A DNA stretch of 24,000 nucleotides from contig OZ271841.1 of the NCBI GenBank assembly GCA_965601755.1, positions 222,241 through 246,240 of the forward strand. Direction: 5' to 3'. Origin of the DNA: Cyclobacteriaceae bacterium. GTDB taxonomy: Bacteria > Bacteroidota > Bacteroidia > Cytophagales > Cyclobacteriaceae. The notes below the pieces were generated by a model, which saw only the letters and a list, made by a program, of their open reading frames with translations, was not told the DNA's origin and did not search any database. The number at the start of each line of letters is the position of its first letter. Position 1 is the stretch's first letter. The position numbers were made by a program, and so were the translations under genes. Positions 3,931 through 12,736 of this stretch are shown in pieces.

Positions 3931-4465
3931 GGAATACCTGGGACAGCAGGAACCCCTCACTCAAAGTAAGGACAAAGAGCAGGTCTGGAGTCAGGTGCAG
4001 AACAAAATGCAGCGACCAAAAAGGCTATATCCGGTTTGGTACCTGGCTGCAGCTTCTGTTACCCTTGTCTTGCTTTCCTCTTTTGCCCTCTATCAACTGC
4101 ATTTGAAAAATCAGACCATAGCCAGGTTACAGGCTGCACTTGAAGAAGTAAATGGACAGCAGGAGGTAATGGCCAATAATAATAAGCAGCTCAAAGGAGA
4201 ATTGGAGGAAGTAATGAACAGGCCGCTACAAGTTGATACTGTTTTCATAACAAAGGTCGTATACCGGGCCCCAGAAAAACGAAGTCAGGTAGATGCTGCA
4301 ATAACTGAGACGGTGAGTCCCTTAGAAAGTGTACCTGTTGAACAGGACCAGGAAATGCCAGTCTTGGCCAATCTTCAAAGTGAAGTGGAGAGTTTAGAAA
4401 TAGAGTATGGAGAAAAAACAGGAGAGGGTATAACACCATGGAGATTTACAGTAAAGTATCATTAG
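3899..4465 (+). CDS. Putative single-pass anti-sigma factor
   Basis: Its ATG overlaps the sigma gene's 3' end by 32 nt. It has a short cytoplasmic N-terminus, one TM helix (LYPVWYLAAASVTLVLLSSFALY), then a coiled-coil-like acidic region. The call rests on position and topology, not on a recognised domain. Confidence 0.6.
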   Translation: MKLWEIEKKFKEYLGQQEPLTQSKDKEQVWSQVQNKMQRPKRLYPVWYLAAASVTLVLLSSFALYQLHLKNQTIARLQAALEEVNGQQEVMANNNKQLKGELEEVMNRPLQVDTVFITKVVYRAPEKRSQVDAAITETVSPLESVPVEQDQEMPVLANLQSEVESLEIEYGEKTGEGITPWRFTVKYH

Positions 4466-4488: not shown

Positions 4489-5352
4489 ATGGACCGAATT
4501 ACACGCATGAGAGAACAAATCAAAATAGGCCTCGTCCTGCTGATTATTCTTTTTGCCTATTGGGCAAAAGGGCAGGTGTTTAATGAGCCGCGCGTCAATG
4601 CCTGCACAGATAAAAACGTCTTTATCAAAAAGATAGAAATTACGGACCAGGAAACGATCTTCACCCTTTGGTTAAGACCCTATCATCACAATACCATTTT
4701 TGTTTCTTCCAAGACCTATATCACATCTAGCAATGGAGGAGACAAACTATTTATCAATGAAGTAAAAGATTATGCGTTGGATCGAACCCTGCAATTGGAC
4801 GAAGAGAAAAAGTACCAGGAGCTGGTATTGTATTTCCCTAAGATTGACCCTTCTGTGCAGGCTTTAAATTTCCGTGCTGGAGAGGATGGTAGCTACTGGC
4901 ATTTCTTTGACATTGATGTGAGTACCAATATCGGTATCGATAAATCAGTTAAGTCAGGAAGAAAAGGTGAGGAAGACAATTGTAAATTCATTGAGAGTCC
5001 AGGCTATACGGCAAAATCAGGAGGCTTTGCCATTACTCGGATTGATTTGTGTGAGGATGAAACGGTGCTCTACTTCGAGGTGAATCTAAGGCAGTTTTCT
5101 GCTATATGGATACCACCAAAATCTGCCATTCGTGATAGCAATGGAGGAAAAGACCTGTTTGTGATCAAAGCGGAAGGAACGAATATCGGGGAACGGATCA
5201 CTGCAGGTGACAATGATGGTGAGATCCTGAATTATAAGTTATTCTTTCCGCCCATAAAGGAATCAGTGAAAAAAATAGATTTCAGGGAGGTGAACAAAGG
5301 AGGTACCTGGTTTATCTATGAAATGGATGCTGATGTATCCAATGTAGAATAG
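4489..5352 (+). CDS. Secreted protein with two tandem ~100-aa homologous domains (unknown family)
   Basis: The ORF is open from 4438. Starts at 4489 (MDRITRMREQIKIGLVLLIILFAYWAKGQ) or 4507 give a signal peptide and avoid overlap with the anti-sigma gene. Internal repeat A is at 4618..4923 and repeat B at 5026..5340, sharing SNGG, LF, FP, FR and DVS landmarks. Confidence 0.7.
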   Translation: MDRITRMREQIKIGLVLLIILFAYWAKGQVFNEPRVNACTDKNVFIKKIEITDQETIFTLWLRPYHHNTIFVSSKTYITSSNGGDKLFINEVKDYALDRTLQLDEEKKYQELVLYFPKIDPSVQALNFRAGEDGSYWHFFDIDVSTNIGIDKSVKSGRKGEEDNCKFIESPGYTAKSGGFAITRIDLCEDETVLYFEVNLRQFSAIWIPPKSAIRDSNGGKDLFVIKAEGTNIGERITAGDNDGEILNYKLFFPPIKESVKKIDFREVNKGGTWFIYEMDADVSNVE

Positions 5353-5527: not shown

Positions 5528-6304
5528 ATGAGAATATTCATTGGCGCTATCATTTTCCTATTCTCTTTTCAGACAATCGCCCAACGAGATTCTTCCTACT
5601 ACAAAGTAAATATTCCGGTAGAGGGAGCGATTACTGCTGCAGGTTTTGTGACAACCACCATCCTGTTCAAAAGGCTTTTCAGGGTGGCTTCAATGAGCGA
5701 GAGCGATGTAATGGCCCTGAATATTGATGATATCAACAGGTTTGATCAGCCTGTTGCCAGATTCAGTCCAGAGGGATATGAAACCAGTCAGAGGTTGTCT
5801 GACCTGTCTTTAAATCTCTCTACTGCACTGCCTTTTTTCCTGTTGATCGATAGGAAGGTAAGAAAGGATTGGGGTGAATACCTGGTGCTTTACCTGGAGT
5901 CTCAGATGATCAATACATCGATCTATCAGGTTGCTGCATTCAGTTTTCGCAGACCAAGACCTCTGACTTACAACAATGAGGCTGATATGCAAATGCGCAC
6001 CGGGGATCAGCGCAGCAATTCCTTCTACAGCGGACATGTTTCTACAGCCGCCACTGCCACCTTTTTTATGGCCAAGGTATATACAGATTATCATGACATC
6101 ACAGGCTGGAAACGACTAGCCTTATACGGTGCAGCATCTGTACCGCCTCTGTTTGTTGGTTATCACCGCATGCATGCCGGTAAGCATTTTCGGACTGATG
6201 TGCTTCTGGGATTCGCCATTGGAGCCGCAAACGGTATCCTTATTCCACACCTGCATAACTGGTTGGGGGGGAAGCGGAAGCAAAAACCTCCAGTGGAGTT
6301 TTAG
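5528..6304 (+). CDS. PAP2-superfamily (phosphatidic acid phosphatase type 2 / haloperoxidase fold) membrane phosphatase
   Basis: All three PAP2 signature blocks are present: FRRPRP (KX6RP-like), YSGH (PSGH) and YHRMHAGKHFRTD (SRX5HX3D-like). It also has a signal peptide and several hydrophobic helices. Confidence 0.85.
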   Translation: MRIFIGAIIFLFSFQTIAQRDSSYYKVNIPVEGAITAAGFVTTTILFKRLFRVASMSESDVMALNIDDINRFDQPVARFSPEGYETSQRLSDLSLNLSTALPFFLLIDRKVRKDWGEYLVLYLESQMINTSIYQVAAFSFRRPRPLTYNNEADMQMRTGDQRSNSFYSGHVSTAATATFFMAKVYTDYHDITGWKRLALYGAASVPPLFVGYHRMHAGKHFRTDVLLGFAIGAANGILIPHLHNWLGGKRKQKPPVEF

Positions 6305-6355
6305 CAGCTTCATAGGATGATACTTAATCTTTCATTTAATCATAAAATCTTTGTA

Positions 6356-6390: not shown

Positions 6391-6804
6391 ATGCAATTAG
6401 ATTTCAGTGCAATAAATTGGTTGTCCATTGTCGTATGCTTTGTTATAGGACAGATTTTCCTGACCCTATGGTTCAGTGTGTTTTTTGGTGAGCCCTGGGC
6501 AAAAGCCTATGACCCTGCTAAAAACAAAAAGGAGCACACAAAAGAAATTCCCGGTTACACATATGCTTTCGTAGCAGTCTGTACTTTCCTTTTGACACTG
6601 GGTCTGGAGCTTTTTCAAATAGCTTTTGGTGTAGATGATTTAGGTTCGGGACTGCAGCTTGGAGTGATTATTAGTGTTTTCTTCATTATTGCCACTATGT
6701 TGCCTGGATATGCTTTTCTGAGGCGGTGGAATGCACTGAGACTTTCACTTGGGAGCCAGGTTTTTGTCACTTTGATTATTTCGGCAATATTAGGAGCCTG
6801 GTAG
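6391..6804 (+). CDS. DUF1761-family small membrane protein
   Basis: 137 aa with about 4 TM helices. The N-terminus INWLSIVVCFVIGQIFLTLWFSVFFGEPWAKAY matches the INWL...FG..W pattern I associate with DUF1761. This is recalled from memory, not searched. Confidence 0.65.
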   Translation: MQLDFSAINWLSIVVCFVIGQIFLTLWFSVFFGEPWAKAYDPAKNKKEHTKEIPGYTYAFVAVCTFLLTLGLELFQIAFGVDDLGSGLQLGVIISVFFIIATMLPGYAFLRRWNALRLSLGSQVFVTLIISAILGAW

Positions 6805-6828: not shown

Positions 6829-7347
6829 ATGTCAATACTTGAAGATATTTTGCAGAGACCTTCTACTAAAAAGCCGCTATTAGATCAGCTAAAGAATGAC
6901 CAGGAAGGGGTTCGTAAGGCTATTGACATCGCTTTGTCAGACAAACAGCCACAGGGATGGAGGGCGGCCTGGGTGCTCAAGGATATTATCAAAGATGAAG
7001 ACCCTAGACTTGCCCCACATCTTACCAGAACGATCAAAGTCCTTGCAGATCGTCCTGACGGCCATCAACGTGAACTCATACATTTGGTGGATAAATTCAC
7101 GCTGTCTGATGATCAGGAAGGAATGTTATTTGACGTCTGCCTGGATATCTGGTCTTCCATCAGGAAATCCCCTTCGGTCAGGATATTGGCATTTAAGCAA
7201 ATTGCTGGTATTATCAGGAAATATCCTGAATTGGTCCATGAGCTAGAACATGTGTTGGATGACGAATATGCGGAAACACTCTCACCGGCGATAAAACGCA
7301 TCTTTATACGGTTGCGTGAAGAGTTGTTGGTACTAAGACAGTCATAG
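6829..7347 (+). CDS. Hypothetical all-helical (HEAT/ARM-like) protein; its last 17 codons are part of the tandem repeat
   Basis: 172-aa ORF starting 24 nt after the DUF1761 gene. The stop TAG (7345..7347) lies inside the first repeat hairpin (CAGTCATAGGATGACTG, 7339..7355). Confidence 0.6.
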   Translation: MSILEDILQRPSTKKPLLDQLKNDQEGVRKAIDIALSDKQPQGWRAAWVLKDIIKDEDPRLAPHLTRTIKVLADRPDGHQRELIHLVDKFTLSDDQEGMLFDVCLDIWSSIRKSPSVRILAFKQIAGIIRKYPELVHELEHVLDDEYAETLSPAIKRIFIRLREELLVLRQS

Positions 7348-7925
7348 GATGACTGCTCTTAAGAATTAGCTTTACTACGAAACCAGAAATTACTTTTATA
7401 TGTCGGTTTTGAATAAGAAGTGACTAATCAGAGTCATCCTATGACTCTCAGGAAACGCATCTTTATACGGTTGCGTGAAGAGTTGTTGGTGCTTAAGCAG
7501 TCATAGGATGACTGCTCTTAAGAATTAGCTTTACTACGAAACCAGAAATTACTTTTATATGTCGATTTTGAATAAGAATATGTCGATTTTGAATAAGAAG
7601 TGACTAATTAGAGTCATCCTATGACTCTCATGAATACGGTTGCGTAAAGAGTTGTTGGTACTAAGACAGTCATAGGATGACTGCTCTTAAGAAATAGCTT
7701 TACTACGAAACTAGAAATTAATATTATATGTCGGTTTTGAATAAGAAATGACTAATTAGAGCCATCCTATGACTCTCAGGAATACGGTTGCGTGAAGAGT
7801 TGTTGGTGCTTAAGCAGTCATAGGATGACTGTTCTTAAGAATTGGCTTTTCTACGAAACCAGAAATTAATATTATATGTCGATTTTGAATAAGAAATGAC
7901 TAATTAGAGTCATCCTATGACTCTC
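7294..7925. repeat. Tandem array of four 148-180 bp units, each carrying two reverse-complementary hairpins
   Basis: Units span 7294..7452 (159 bp), 7453..7632 (180 bp), 7633..7780 (148 bp, an 11-nt deletion relative to unit 1) and 7781..7925. Unit 2 contains an internal 21-bp direct duplication (7557..7577 = 7578..7598). Hairpin A (CAGTCAT-AGG-ATGACTG) is at 7339, 7498, 7667 and 7815. Hairpin B (AGAGTCAT-CCT-ATGACTCT) is at 7430, 7610, 7758 (one mismatch) and 7906. Confidence 0.95.
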
Positions 7926-10405
7926 TAACTTGACTTCTTCTTAAACACCCCCGGATCTACAGACCAGGGGTCATCAGGCCAGCGGTGCTTTGGATACCTT
8001 CTTTTTAGCTCCTTTCGGACCTCAAAATAGGTGTCATTCCAAAAGCTATTCAGATCATTTGTTCGCTGCACGGGCTTGAAACCAGGAGATAAGAGGTCCA
8101 ACAACACACCTTGCTTACCATTATTGATTTTGGGAGTCTCAGCCAAACCAAAGAGTTCCTGCAGCCGAACGCTTAATATCGGAGGCTCTCCATTTTCCCG
8201 GTATTTCAGCTTGAGCTGGCTACCACTGGGTACTGTAATTCTGAAAGGTGCCTGACTATCCAGCGCTTGTTGTTTGTCATACTCCAGTGTGTGCTGGAGT
8301 ATATCTCTCAAATTGAGTTTCTTCAGGTCTTCCGCGGTACGTACATGATCGAGGTAAGGTTCAAGCCAAGAATTGACGGATTCAAGGAGATTTGATGTGC
8401 TCACGTCAGGCCAAGATTCGTCCGGGTTCCATATCCGCAGAGAGAGTACCCGCAATTGCCATTGAAGGACTTCCTCGCTAAAATCCAGTAACTGCTTACC
8501 TTCTTTTTTGACAGCCTCCAGAATGGCGCTTTTTATATGTGCGGGGTCCGGATTGCTCAATGGCTTACTTTGTAAAACTATACTTCCTATGGAAAGATCT
8601 TTAGTTGCTATCAATCCTCCCTTTCGTGTATCCCACGCAATGACTTCGCGTTCCTTCACCCTTACTGCAAGGTCTTTTGGGTTTAGTGGAGCAGCCAGAT
8701 GGATCTTTCCCAGGCCATCCCGGGCATTGAGGTGGGCTACTGCCAACCAGGGCTCATGAGCCAGGTCATCCCGATGACCTGCTACGGCATATCTTCCATT
8801 GGCCAACTGGAACTGAGCATTGTTCCCCGGACGTGCACTGGCAATACGCTCAGGATAGGCCATGCTCAGCACAAAACCTACTTCGTAAGGGTCAATTATG
8901 TCCTCATTCGCCTCGGCTTTAAGCATTTCACGATAGCTATTTGCTACTTGTTCGATGCGGCTCAATCTTCCTCCTTTCCTGTTCTCTGAACGAAAACGAT
9001 GCAATGCTTCTACACGAACAGATAAATCAATTCCTGCATCTGGCAGGGGATCCCGTTCTTCGATCAATGCGGCCACATCCGCTGCCAGGGGAGTTAATCC
9101 CATCTCATCTGCCTCCAGCAACATATGTGCAATCCGGGGGTGGCAGGGGAGTTGTTGTATTCTTTTACCATGCTCCGTGATCCTGTTGTCTTCCAGGGCC
9201 TCCAATTCGTGAAGCAGCGCACGAGCGGAAGCCACGTGGCCGGCAGGAGGGGGATTGAGCCATTTCAGGTCATTCACATTGGTGATACCCCAATTGGCCA
9301 GCTCCAGCACAAGACTGCTCAGGTCAGCATCCAGCAATTCAGGAGTACTAAAATCCTGTAAATGAGCATGAGTAGACTGAGTCCACATGCGATAGCATAT
9401 ACCAGGAGATAATCGACCTGCTCGTCCTGCCCGTTGGTCGGCGGTGTCTTTTGTAACTGGTAATGTGACAAGCCGAGATAGCCCTGAACCAGGATCAAAA
9501 GTTGCCTTGCGGATAAAACCTGCATCTACCACTACCTTGATGCCTTCTATAGTTAGACTGGTTTCCGCAATTGAGGTAGCTAATACGACTTTCCGTCTAC
9601 CATTTTTGTCAGGAAAGATGGCCGCAAGCTGCTTGTTTTGGGGTAGCTGACCAAATAAAGGATGGATGGCTGCCTGAGGGAGCTCCTTTTTCAAGAGCTC
9701 TTCACACTTCCGGATCTCGCCTTCACCAGGAAAGAAGGCCAGGATGTCTCCAGGCTGTTCCCCGAAAGCTTGCTTGATCACCCGAGCCGCCATTTCCGGG
9801 ATCATAAACTGGTCTGTTTCACCTGTATATCGGACTTCAATAGGATATTGTTTCCCCTGGCTCACTGCTACAGGAGCTCTGAGTAGCGTCTCTAGCTCAG
9901 GCATATTGAGCGTGGCCGACATCACAACGAGTCGGAGGTCAGGCCGAAGGACCTGTTGTGACTCCAATGACAGAGCCAACGCCAGGTCAGCGTGCAAGCT
10001 ACGCTCGTGAAACTCATCAAACATGACTAAACCGACACCCTCCAAAGCATTATCTGATTGGAGCATGCGGGTAAGGATACCCTCAGTGACCACCTCGATC
10101 TTTGTTTGCTCCGAAACACGGGTTTCGAACCGGATCCGATAGCCAATTGTCTGGCCAACTGGTTCTTCGAGAAGCTGAGCCATTCGGTAAGCGATAGATC
10201 GTGCCGCCAATCTACGAGGTTCTAGCAAGATGATCTTTTGGCCTTCCAGCCATTTTTCTCCAAGTAAAGCCAGGGGCAGAATAGTGCTTTTTCCTGCTCC
10301 GGGAGGAGCATTGACAATGAGCCGGTTACAAGAAACCAGTTTAGATTTTACCTCATCTATGATTTCGGTTATCGGCAGGTCGACCTGATGGGGATTGAAT
10401 GGCAA
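7925..10405 (-). CDS. hrpB: ATP-dependent DEAH-box RNA helicase HrpB
   Basis: 826 aa with Walker A (APPGAGKST), DEFHERS (motif II), SAT, TSIAETSLTIEG and QRAGRAGR (motif VI), plus a long C-terminal extension typical of HrpB. The start is TTG at 10405. The stop TAG (7925..7927) abuts the last repeat hairpin. Confidence 0.92.
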   Translation of the reverse strand: MPFNPHQVDLPITEIIDEVKSKLVSCNRLIVNAPPGAGKSTILPLALLGEKWLEGQKIILLEPRRLAARSIAYRMAQLLEEPVGQTIGYRIRFETRVSEQTKIEVVTEGILTRMLQSDNALEGVGLVMFDEFHERSLHADLALALSLESQQVLRPDLRLVVMSATLNMPELETLLRAPVAVSQGKQYPIEVRYTGETDQFMIPEMAARVIKQAFGEQPGDILAFFPGEGEIRKCEELLKKELPQAAIHPLFGQLPQNKQLAAIFPDKNGRRKVVLATSIAETSLTIEGIKVVVDAGFIRKATFDPGSGLSRLVTLPVTKDTADQRAGRAGRLSPGICYRMWTQSTHAHLQDFSTPELLDADLSSLVLELANWGITNVNDLKWLNPPPAGHVASARALLHELEALEDNRITEHGKRIQQLPCHPRIAHMLLEADEMGLTPLAADVAALIEERDPLPDAGIDLSVRVEALHRFRSENRKGGRLSRIEQVANSYREMLKAEANEDIIDPYEVGFVLSMAYPERIASARPGNNAQFQLANGRYAVAGHRDDLAHEPWLAVAHLNARDGLGKIHLAAPLNPKDLAVRVKEREVIAWDTRKGGLIATKDLSIGSIVLQSKPLSNPDPAHIKSAILEAVKKEGKQLLDFSEEVLQWQLRVLSLRIWNPDESWPDVSTSNLLESVNSWLEPYLDHVRTAEDLKKLNLRDILQHTLEYDKQQALDSQAPFRITVPSGSQLKLKYRENGEPPILSVRLQELFGLAETPKINNGKQGVLLDLLSPGFKPVQRTNDLNSFWNDTYFEVRKELKRRYPKHRWPDDPWSVDPGVFKKKSS

Positions 10406-10746
10406 TGGAAGTGCGGATTAGTATATCCGCGAAGTTAAAGGATGTGGGTAAAATTGAATCTTAATAAGGTCTTAAATAATGAGCCGGCCTTTATGGTTGT
10501 TCTCTCATCTATTAGCATAAAGGGATAGTTCCTTCAATTGATTTTAAATGGGTTGAATAAAAAGACAGGCCGCTCCTACGGAGCTAACTATGATTACATC
10601 GATTAATGTTATGGACAGGTCGACCCTGCGGGACTTTTCTCTTGCCTTGATTGGTATTCAATGATTTAACTGCCAATGTTGCATGGTTTAAAAATTATTT
10701 TAGCCAGTGGGTAACAGTAAGTAGAAACAAGAAGCCGGAATATATC

Positions 10747-12620: not shown

Positions 12621-12649
12621 TTTACATAGTCATAGGATGACTATGTAAA
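12621..12649. repeat. Solo 13-bp-stem hairpin carrying the same 15-nt core as the tandem array
   Basis: TTTACATAGTCAT-AGG-ATGACTATGTAAA is a perfect palindrome around an AGG loop. Its core AGTCATAGGATGACT is identical to hairpin A of the 7294..7925 array. It lies between convergent genes (stops at 12437 and 12737). Confidence 0.9.
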
Positions 12650-12736
12650 TCAGAAAGGAGGTCTGAAATTTAATGCACAGCGATATAATACTTAGGAACT
12701 ACGTTGGTTTAAGGTAGTCACCTCATCATGACTTAC

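Follow-up and report, generated by a model that had tools for sequence, protein, structure and literature searches.

Architecture of the array

The DNA considered here is a stretch of 24,000 nt from a Cyclobacteriaceae bacterium (assembly GCA_965601755.1, contig OZ271841.1, forward-strand positions 222,241 to 246,240), hereafter the window, with positions counted from its first letter. Between a gene for a 172-aa protein and a convergent hrpB-type helicase gene it contains a gap filled by a tandem array of four units, in each of which the 3' end of the upstream gene, or a copy of it, leads into a module bounded by two hairpins, A and B (Table 1). With a period of 159, Tandem Repeats Finder counts 3.8 copies over 7294-7898, and with a period of 148 it reports 7578-7925 (92% matches); a repeat finder returns four copies starting at 7306, 7465, 7634 and 7782, with spacings of 159, 169 and 148. 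In the phase adopted by an earlier note on this DNA, the units start at 7294, 7453, 7633 and 7781, with the end at 7925, giving lengths of 159, 180, 148 and 145 bp. Unit 2 contains a perfect 21-bp internal duplication (7557-7599), which explains its greater length, and the start of units 3 and 4 is marked by an 11-nt deletion. In pairwise comparison the units are 91.7-95.8% identical, with 6-12 differences over 144 aligned positions (4-8% substitutions).

Hairpin A has the sequence CAGTCAT-AGG-ATGACTG, and hairpin B, AGAGTCAT-CCT-ATGACTCT, is its reverse complement, the two being separated in each unit by a linker of ~77 nt. The hairpin B of unit 3 carries a single stem mutation (AGCCAT), and an additional half-site, G/ATGACT, is present at 7420, 7600, 7748 and 7896. 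All gene-end copies terminate in TCA-TAG within hairpin A; since the real gene stops in the hairpin A of unit 1, the additional copies are non-coding pseudo-copies. No ORF (open reading frame) of at least 60 aa was found inside 7348-7924, nor any transposase or recombinase domain among the window ORFs tested. The description given in the earlier note, namely four head-to-tail units of 159, 180, 148 and ~145 bp, each headed by a copy of the last 13-17 codons with the stop, hairpins A and B sharing a 15-nt core in opposite orientation, a fifth half-site ahead of hairpin B, and neither an ORF of that size in the array nor a transposase nearby, is thereby borne out: the repeat programs recover the units, sequence and alignment the gene-end copies, and four of each hairpin and all four half-sites can be located.

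The individual stem-loops have stems of 6-13 bp and a 3-nt loop. Together, A and B, which lie ~90 nt apart, give a ~105-nt imperfect palindrome in a module of ~107 bp. When A is paired with B, the module folds at -34.3 kcal/mol (z -3.4) when treated as RNA and at -17.1 kcal/mol (z -3.2) when treated as DNA; this pairing is seen in both the minimum-free-energy and the centroid structures, and few shuffled sequences fold equally well. The single linkers are themselves self-complementary. At three independent loci the start-to-start spacing of A and B is confined to 80-92 nt despite non-homologous linkers, and the stems are prolonged past the invariant core by bases that vary between copies (60% paired at positions ±1 and ±2 versus 25% expected).

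Orthologous loci and the history of the array

The closest relative is a Cyclobacteriaceae metagenome-assembled genome (MAG; CBDDGZ010000002.1, 5.82 Mb), from which two adjacent tiles match the window at 94-96.5% identity over ~15 kb. At the orthologous site this MAG, 94-95% identical, carries just a single copy of each hairpin, A and B. Among the fetched loci (cited by handles such as L001), L001, L122 and L123-125, in which the 172-aa protein is 74-87% identical, hold one module each without a gene-end copy, and L002 (76% identity) has a gap of 22 bp with one hairpin adjoining the stop codon. The other orthologous loci recovered from relatives contain at most one module each, and L126, a more distant, non-syntenic homologue, has no hairpin. 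Since orthologous loci in relatives hold at most one module, the ancestral state was one module or a single hairpin, and the four-unit state is a lineage-specific amplification from one to four.

That the closest relative carries one unit could also be expected if an assembler had mis-expanded a single unit in the window. Such an error would yield identical copies, however, whereas between the units 6-12 of the 144 aligned positions differ, and there are unit-specific indels, the 11-nt deletion and the 21-bp duplication; hence the four-copy array is real, and a simple assembly artefact is hardly credible.

The junctions between units point to how the array might have arisen. The string after every hairpin B, ATGACTCTCA, matches ACACTCTCA in the gene at 7279-7285 in the multiple alignment. 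The first duplication may have joined the ACTCTC 3' of hairpin B to the in-gene ACTCTC, with the junctions trimmed later, through microhomology-mediated slippage or template switching, a process that a replication-stalling palindrome would favor. In this lineage a segment consisting of the module and ~40-54 bp from the end of the upstream gene was tandemly reiterated to four copies; the present mosaic would reflect later unequal exchange or gene conversion, the 11-nt deletion, the 21-bp duplication and clustered substitutions of a template-switch-like kind. Among the units, variable sites in the 5' gene-derived part form an ABAB pattern, those in the 3' part and linker an AABB pattern; in its 5' part the only unit of the relative is like unit 1 and in its 3' part like unit 4, and it is the 3' part of unit 4 that is orthologous to this single unit. 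These patterns suggest several rounds of duplication and of unequal exchange or conversion, not one burst, and since the divergence between units is about equal to that from the relative, the array is not brand new. Further, four substitutions within 7 nt set units 1 and 3 apart from units 2 and 4 (ACTAAGAC to GCTTAAGC) and change how long the extended stem of hairpin A is and in which register it pairs; a cluster of this kind would be typical of quasi-palindrome template switching. The amplification as such is most likely a neutral by-product.

At the other edge of the gap, in L001 (10636-10650) and L122 (10625-10639), the hrpB stop (TCA-TAA) lies within a third, degenerate hairpin copy, AGTCAC-CTT-ATGACT on the plus strand. 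In these two loci both convergent genes terminate in a hairpin-borne Ser-stop, and the third copy has been lost from the window.

Recurrence of the hairpin core in the window and in related genomes

The 15-nt core, AGTCAT-N3-ATGACT, occurs nine times in the window against 0.15 expected, a count reached by no shuffle. Beyond the array, a second locus lies in the convergent gap downstream of the NHL-repeat gene, with a hairpin of perfect stem and a degenerate partner (Table 1); both partners are intact and 87-88 nt apart in the close relative and in Cyclobacteriaceae SS2. A degenerate copy in the gap after the PAP2 gene has intact counterparts in relatives (L002:9467, L122:9956, L123:2539). We considered whether the PAP2 stop codon lies within this hairpin, and rejected it: the TAG is at 6302-6304, 5 nt upstream. 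In L002 and L122 the core is present in three neighboring gaps. All hairpin copies are intergenic or overlap just a stop codon, and the core is a dispersed intergenic repeat in the window and in related genomes. Further, the hairpins appear to be maintained, as they are intact where the linkers have diverged to noise.

The linker of the second locus deserves separate description. The ~73 nt at 12643-12715 of the window and at 12697-12769 of L102/L112 (reverse complement) are wholly different in genomes that are ~95% identical. Flanks and hairpins are conserved between the two, the linker of the relative is far more self-complementary, and the difference is not an inversion.

A separate mosaic of ~1 kb, composed of several repeat types, is found in SS2 (L021), UBA7330 (L028/L121) and L174 (a genome of 5.64 Mb). 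This cluster holds two A/B doublets and a lone B and, in L021/L174, includes a second hairpin family. Adjoining a VRR_NUC gene, it has been rearranged between L174 (6881-9306) and L021 (4150-5140) though the flanking genes are 98% identical; a DDE_Tnp_1 insertion sequence (IS) lies beside it in L174, and in L175 the orthologous gap of 162 bp (9839-10001) lacks it. Within L021 itself, 4226-4305 and 4954-5033 form an 80-nt direct repeat (86% identical) whose two copies bear the hairpin with different loops, AGG and CCT, the three loop nucleotides being flipped in situ amid collinear sequence.

Distribution beyond the family

The scan of the genome collection used the exact bare 15-mer, and most of the listed matches are due to chance. 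Among the matches listed, to which the following statements on distant genomes apply, several tiles from other Bacteroidota have one or two additional copies at a distance of 3-50 nt; these are inverted, and their loops are complementary (AGG/CCG, CGG/CCG, GGG/CCC), the pairs having the form AGTCAT-NGG-ATGACT / AGTCAT-CCN-ATGACT. A second copy so near is vastly improbable by chance. In L036, L059, L099 and L118 two separate gaps of one 8-kb tile are occupied, and the family seems denser in some other Bacteroidota. These distant doublets often fill short spacers between housekeeping genes (GNAT, DsrE, SIMPL, ribF, truB, aroE and a two-component system); only housekeeping genes, and no transposase, adjoin the doublets in these tiles. 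Viral contigs gave 47 single matches, which is the chance level, with no doublets, and hence no link to phages is indicated.

In an uncultured Clostridiaceae MAG, the same 15-mer is central to a perfect palindrome of at least 60 nt on two contigs (L063:66-110; L103, minus strand, ~1023-1067), with the sequence …GGACGGAGGTGTTTG-AGTCATAGGATGACT-CAAACACCTCCGTCC… and a stem that on either side runs 24-26 nt past the core. The repeat is probably unrelated and shares the core by chance.

The remaining genes of the window are ordinary: they encode a metallo-beta-lactamase/rhodanese protein, an ECF sigma factor, PAP2, DUF1761, the NHL-repeat protein, an SSF transporter, PPK2, an AraC regulator, a TonB-dependent receptor, an M48 peptidase and MatE.

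Table 1. Features of the locus and further hairpin sites. Positions without a handle are those of the window; the last five rows are doublets among the matches listed in the exact-15-mer scan.
Feature	Position	Strand	Remarks
Upstream gene, 172 aa	6829..7347	+	sub-threshold HEAT-repeat similarity; TAG stop (7345-7347) in stem/loop of hairpin A1
ACTCTC(A) microhomology in upstream gene	7279..7285	+	would mark the proximal breakpoint of the original duplication, judging from the alignment
Unit 1	7294..7452	+	true gene end; A1 7339-7355; 77-nt linker; B1 7430-7448
Unit 2	7453..7632	+	untranslated copy of last 17 codons plus stop 7453-7506; A2 7498-7514; B2 7610-7628
Unit 3	7633..7780	+	copy of last 13 codons plus stop 7634-7675; A3 7667-7683; linker; B3 7758-7776
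Unit 4	7781..7924	+	copy of last 13 codons plus stop 7782-7823; A4 7815-7831; linker; B4 7906-7924
Convergent hrpB-type ATP-dependent helicase gene	7925..10405	-	stop codon 7925-7927 abuts hairpin B4
Degenerate core copy	6306..6322	+	TTCAT-AGG-ATGAT; just after PAP2 stop
Second-locus hairpin	12621..12649	+	perfect 13-bp stem, TTTACATAGTCAT-AGG-ATGACTATGTAAA; core at 12628; convergent gap downstream of NHL-repeat gene
Second-locus partner, degenerate hairpin B	12716..12733	+	AGTCAC-CTCATC-ATGACT; 3 nt from stop of convergent 193-aa gene
Draconibacterium tight doublets	L059; L097:2698-2730; L099:6066-6099 and 7273-7293		
Sphingobacteriaceae doublets	L118:5596-5641 and 6415-6458		consecutive spacers ribF|SIMPL|truB
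Bacteroidales doublet	L076:105-137		
Bacteroidota doublet	L100:1923-1955		within a palindrome with 25-nt arms
Unclassified doublets	L036:975-1021 and 4764-4809		

A probable doublet of repetitive extragenic palindromes, locally amplified

These observations suggest that the convergent gap probably holds a doublet of repetitive extragenic palindromic (REP) sequences with the core AGTCAT-NGG-ATGACT, of the type seen in bacterial interspersed mosaic elements (BIMEs) and in the hairpin-forming REP doublets termed REPINs, which has been locally amplified together with a gene end. The match to REP doublets lies in the inverted pairs of palindromes, the long hairpin that they form, their position in convergent and co-directional gaps, and the mosaic, fast-changing and IS-attracting clusters. 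The hairpins probably act like REPs, as stem-loops in single-stranded nucleic acid, be it single-stranded DNA (ssDNA) or RNA, at gene 3' ends, and could be recognized by an enzyme of the Y1 type, i.e., a REP-associated tyrosine transposase (RAYT), or by another protein. The earlier note had offered a REP/BIME-like cluster and an amplified non-autonomous element that dragged the gene end along as alternatives. Both are supported, by the recurrence of the core at other intergenic loci in the window and related genomes, by the single module in relatives and by a duplication junction in the gene at a microhomology, and the two merge into one. Seen thus, the array belongs among the fairly ordinary forms of intergenic junk or structure, here in a bacterial family that has been little studied.

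Several observations weigh against this reading. The family in this clade looks sparse and locally clustered: two 8-kb tiles per related genome appear among the matches listed in the exact-15-mer scan, no further copy turns up in ~44 kb of sequence from the clade that had not been picked for the hairpin (L175 plus the rest of L174), L126 holds no additional loci, and a search of metagenome contigs for the doublet pattern gave one match, at the same locus as L028. The linkers of different loci are no more alike than shuffled sequences, and young REPIN populations differ in this respect; a shared interior, as expected for a miniature inverted-repeat transposable element (MITE) or a young REPIN, can accordingly be rejected. 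The canonical 5' GTAG foot, GTAGTCAT, occurs in only ~9 of 40 distinct copies (~2.5 expected), and the eight array copies have CAG or GAG in its place. Additionally, no RAYT/Y1 gene flanked by the AGTCAT-NGG-ATGACT hairpin was found in the window or the fetched loci, and the one Y1_Tnp gene seen (L001:13863-14324, 153 aa; motifs DHTH, WQ and YVLNQEEHH, which place it in subclass 1.2) is bracketed by another repeat family, GCCGCTCCTACGGAGC followed by ACAGGTCGNCCCTNCGGGAC. Finally, doublets at orthologous sites persist across species with just ~75% protein identity, which would also fit a selected cis-element that is not mobile.

The Y1 transposase of L001 was examined as a candidate cognate enzyme and rejected, as it belongs to this different repeat family; with tblastn against all fetched loci, its protein matched itself only. 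Around it, L001:13270-14630 shows three copies of the GCCGCTCCTACGGAGC family, which is palindromic and unrelated to the hairpin; they are arranged as long inverted and direct repeats, a layout resembling a REPtron. At the same position in the window, between hrpB and the CarboxypepD_reg gene, a solo relic of this family is preserved (10569-10640).

The main rival to an amplified REP doublet is such a non-mobile host cis-element, a stem-loop at gene 3' ends whose sequence would be read by a conserved protein of Bacteroidota, for example a signal for mRNA 3'-end protection or processing, an unconventional terminator, or an insulator for convergent transcription, with the array either strengthening its function or being incidental. 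We consider it unlikely, but several observations speak for it: the hairpin sequence, including the NGG/CCN loop, and the spacing are kept at orthologous loci where linkers have diverged to noise, the same core lies beside unrelated housekeeping genes in several Bacteroidota orders, the family is low-copy in this clade, and in convergent gaps both transcripts would bear an AGUCAU-AGG-AUGACU hairpin by the stop codon. It is less easily reconciled with the gain and loss of clusters between close relatives, with the occurrence of doublets in tandem-gene gaps too, and with the inconsistent orientation of singletons, which are antisense at L002:9467 and L122:9956 and sense at window position 6310 and L123:2539. 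Nor do the stems, with their 2-4 G:C pairs, resemble terminators: no T/U-run follows them, a terminator scan of 7294-7925 finds nothing, and promoter and terminator scans remain at chance level. At the RNA level, Rfam 15 yields no match at the gathering score and, under permissive settings, only chance-level matches to miRNA models (E>0.03), while RNAalifold recovers only the two hairpins, whose pairs are all invariant, with 0 compensatory pairs. The tandem set of structured RNAs or terminators proposed in the earlier note is left without support on these same grounds (no Rfam match, no covarying pairs, no T-run after either hairpin).

The two remaining explanations take the inverted ends as sites of a mobile element or of a recombinase. 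A classical MITE of ~107 bp with terminal inverted repeats, placed downstream of the gene by a DDE transposase and then amplified, would have the appropriate module length, perfect inverted ends of 15 nt (or ~30 nt at most when a 4-nt indel is tolerated) and, in L002, a site without linker and second hairpin. But this "empty" site already holds one hairpin, the module has no flanking target-site duplication or direct repeat, hairpins also occur singly or as doublets spaced 3-50 nt apart, the interiors at different loci are unrelated, and the window contains no transposase, all of which render this origin quite improbable. The MITE-like wording of the earlier note is apt on the surface alone: the inverted ends are real, but a target-site duplication is missing, there are singleton hairpins, and the interior is not conserved between loci. 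Alternatively, the inverted 15-bp cores could be recombinase sites that flip the ~77-bp linker as an invertible DNA switch, in keeping with A and B being perfect inverted repeats with an asymmetric 3-nt center, with the wholly different second-locus linker in the 95%-identical relative, and with the loop flipped between two otherwise collinear repeat copies in L021. Compared with the other allele, however, the replaced linker is no reverse complement, the identity of ~60% in both directions being that of background; at the first locus every orthologue and all four units have the same orientation, no recombinase gene lies close by, and no promoter-like signal rises above chance. Moreover, 77 bp is very short for recombinase-mediated looping, and such a switch is very improbable, even more so than a MITE.

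Significance

In terms of annotation, the 630 bp of the gap are non-coding repeat DNA and not a cassette system, a CRISPR-like array or an RNA gene. The locus documents a REP/BIME-type palindromic repeat in the Cyclobacteriaceae; searches of the literature brought up no REP element for these taxa and no paper with the core sequence. It further offers a clean series from nature, in which one and the same orthologous site carries 0.5, 1 or 4 modules and the microhomology junction can be identified. The series shows how a cluster can grow, with a duplication at microhomology that captures coding DNA and subsequent unequal exchange. In practical terms, the array is a likely marker for strain typing, and it is a pitfall when genomes are assembled from short reads.

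The presence of this core in distant Bacteroidota hints at a conserved factor that recognizes it. One might go further and regard AGTCAT-NGG-ATGACT as an element of the whole phylum, its 12-nt stem and G-rich loop conserved across the Cytophagales, Marinilabiliales, Sphingobacteriales and Bacteroidales and kept by a conserved single-strand-specific protein, such as a Bacteroidota subclass of RAYT or a new RNA- or ssDNA-binding factor; we put this forward as speculative and rather doubtful. Were it true, this would be the first REP-type family with a core conserved at the level of a phylum, and the doublet of ~88-92 nt would be a functional unit, constrained in length, of gene 3' ends.

Comparison with known systems

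The array invites comparison with several classes of short palindromic elements. Integron attC sites and CALIN (clusters of attC sites lacking integron-integrases) arrays are likewise arrayed imperfect palindromes, 57-141 nt long, in which the ends are conserved and the center varies. Unlike them, the array lacks RYYYAAC/GTTRRRY core sites, an integrase and ORF cassettes, and its units are plainly paralogous copies of local DNA; the absence of R''/R' boxes led us to reject this reading on sequence. With MITEs, the module shares a size of ~100 bp, inverted ends and the want of an ORF; it departs from them in that it shows no target-site duplication, that each of its ends is a stem-loop also found alone, and that its interiors are not conserved.

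Closer parallels are found among REPs. In the clusters described in the literature, dimers are tandemly reiterated along with pieces of flanking DNA; REPs favor convergent or unidirectional gaps, and their termini often supply a TAG stop codon (PMC3733652). The BIME-2/REP clusters of enterobacteria and the GTAG-REP clusters (Di Nocera et al. 2013, PMC3733652) resemble the present family in consisting of short extragenic palindromes in alternating orientation, separated by linkers, in lying in convergent or co-directional gaps, in sometimes supplying a TAG stop, and in varying in copy number between close relatives. Here, however, the core is 15-19 nt as against ~35 nt, and the palindrome is perfect except for the loop; the linkers are long (~77 and ~52 nt), one of them being derived from coding sequence, and most copies lack the GTAG foot. 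The family also appears to be low-copy in the clade, with no cognate RAYT found in the window or fetched loci. In Bacteroidetes, REP-associated Y1 transposases are reported with canonical, "double-foot" or atypical REPs (PMC6006769), and those copies here that have the form GTAGTCAT...ATGACTAC look like the double-foot type. REPIN populations have a common spacer sequence, tens to hundreds of members per genome and one flanked RAYT (PMC3116915), unlike the few copies here with spacers unrelated between loci and no linked RAYT. In their build, nevertheless, the modules agree with REPINs (Bertels and Rainey 2011, PMC3116915): both consist of two inverted REPs around a spacer of ~70 nt that form a hairpin of ~105-110 nt, and in both the doublets are inherited vertically at orthologous sites.

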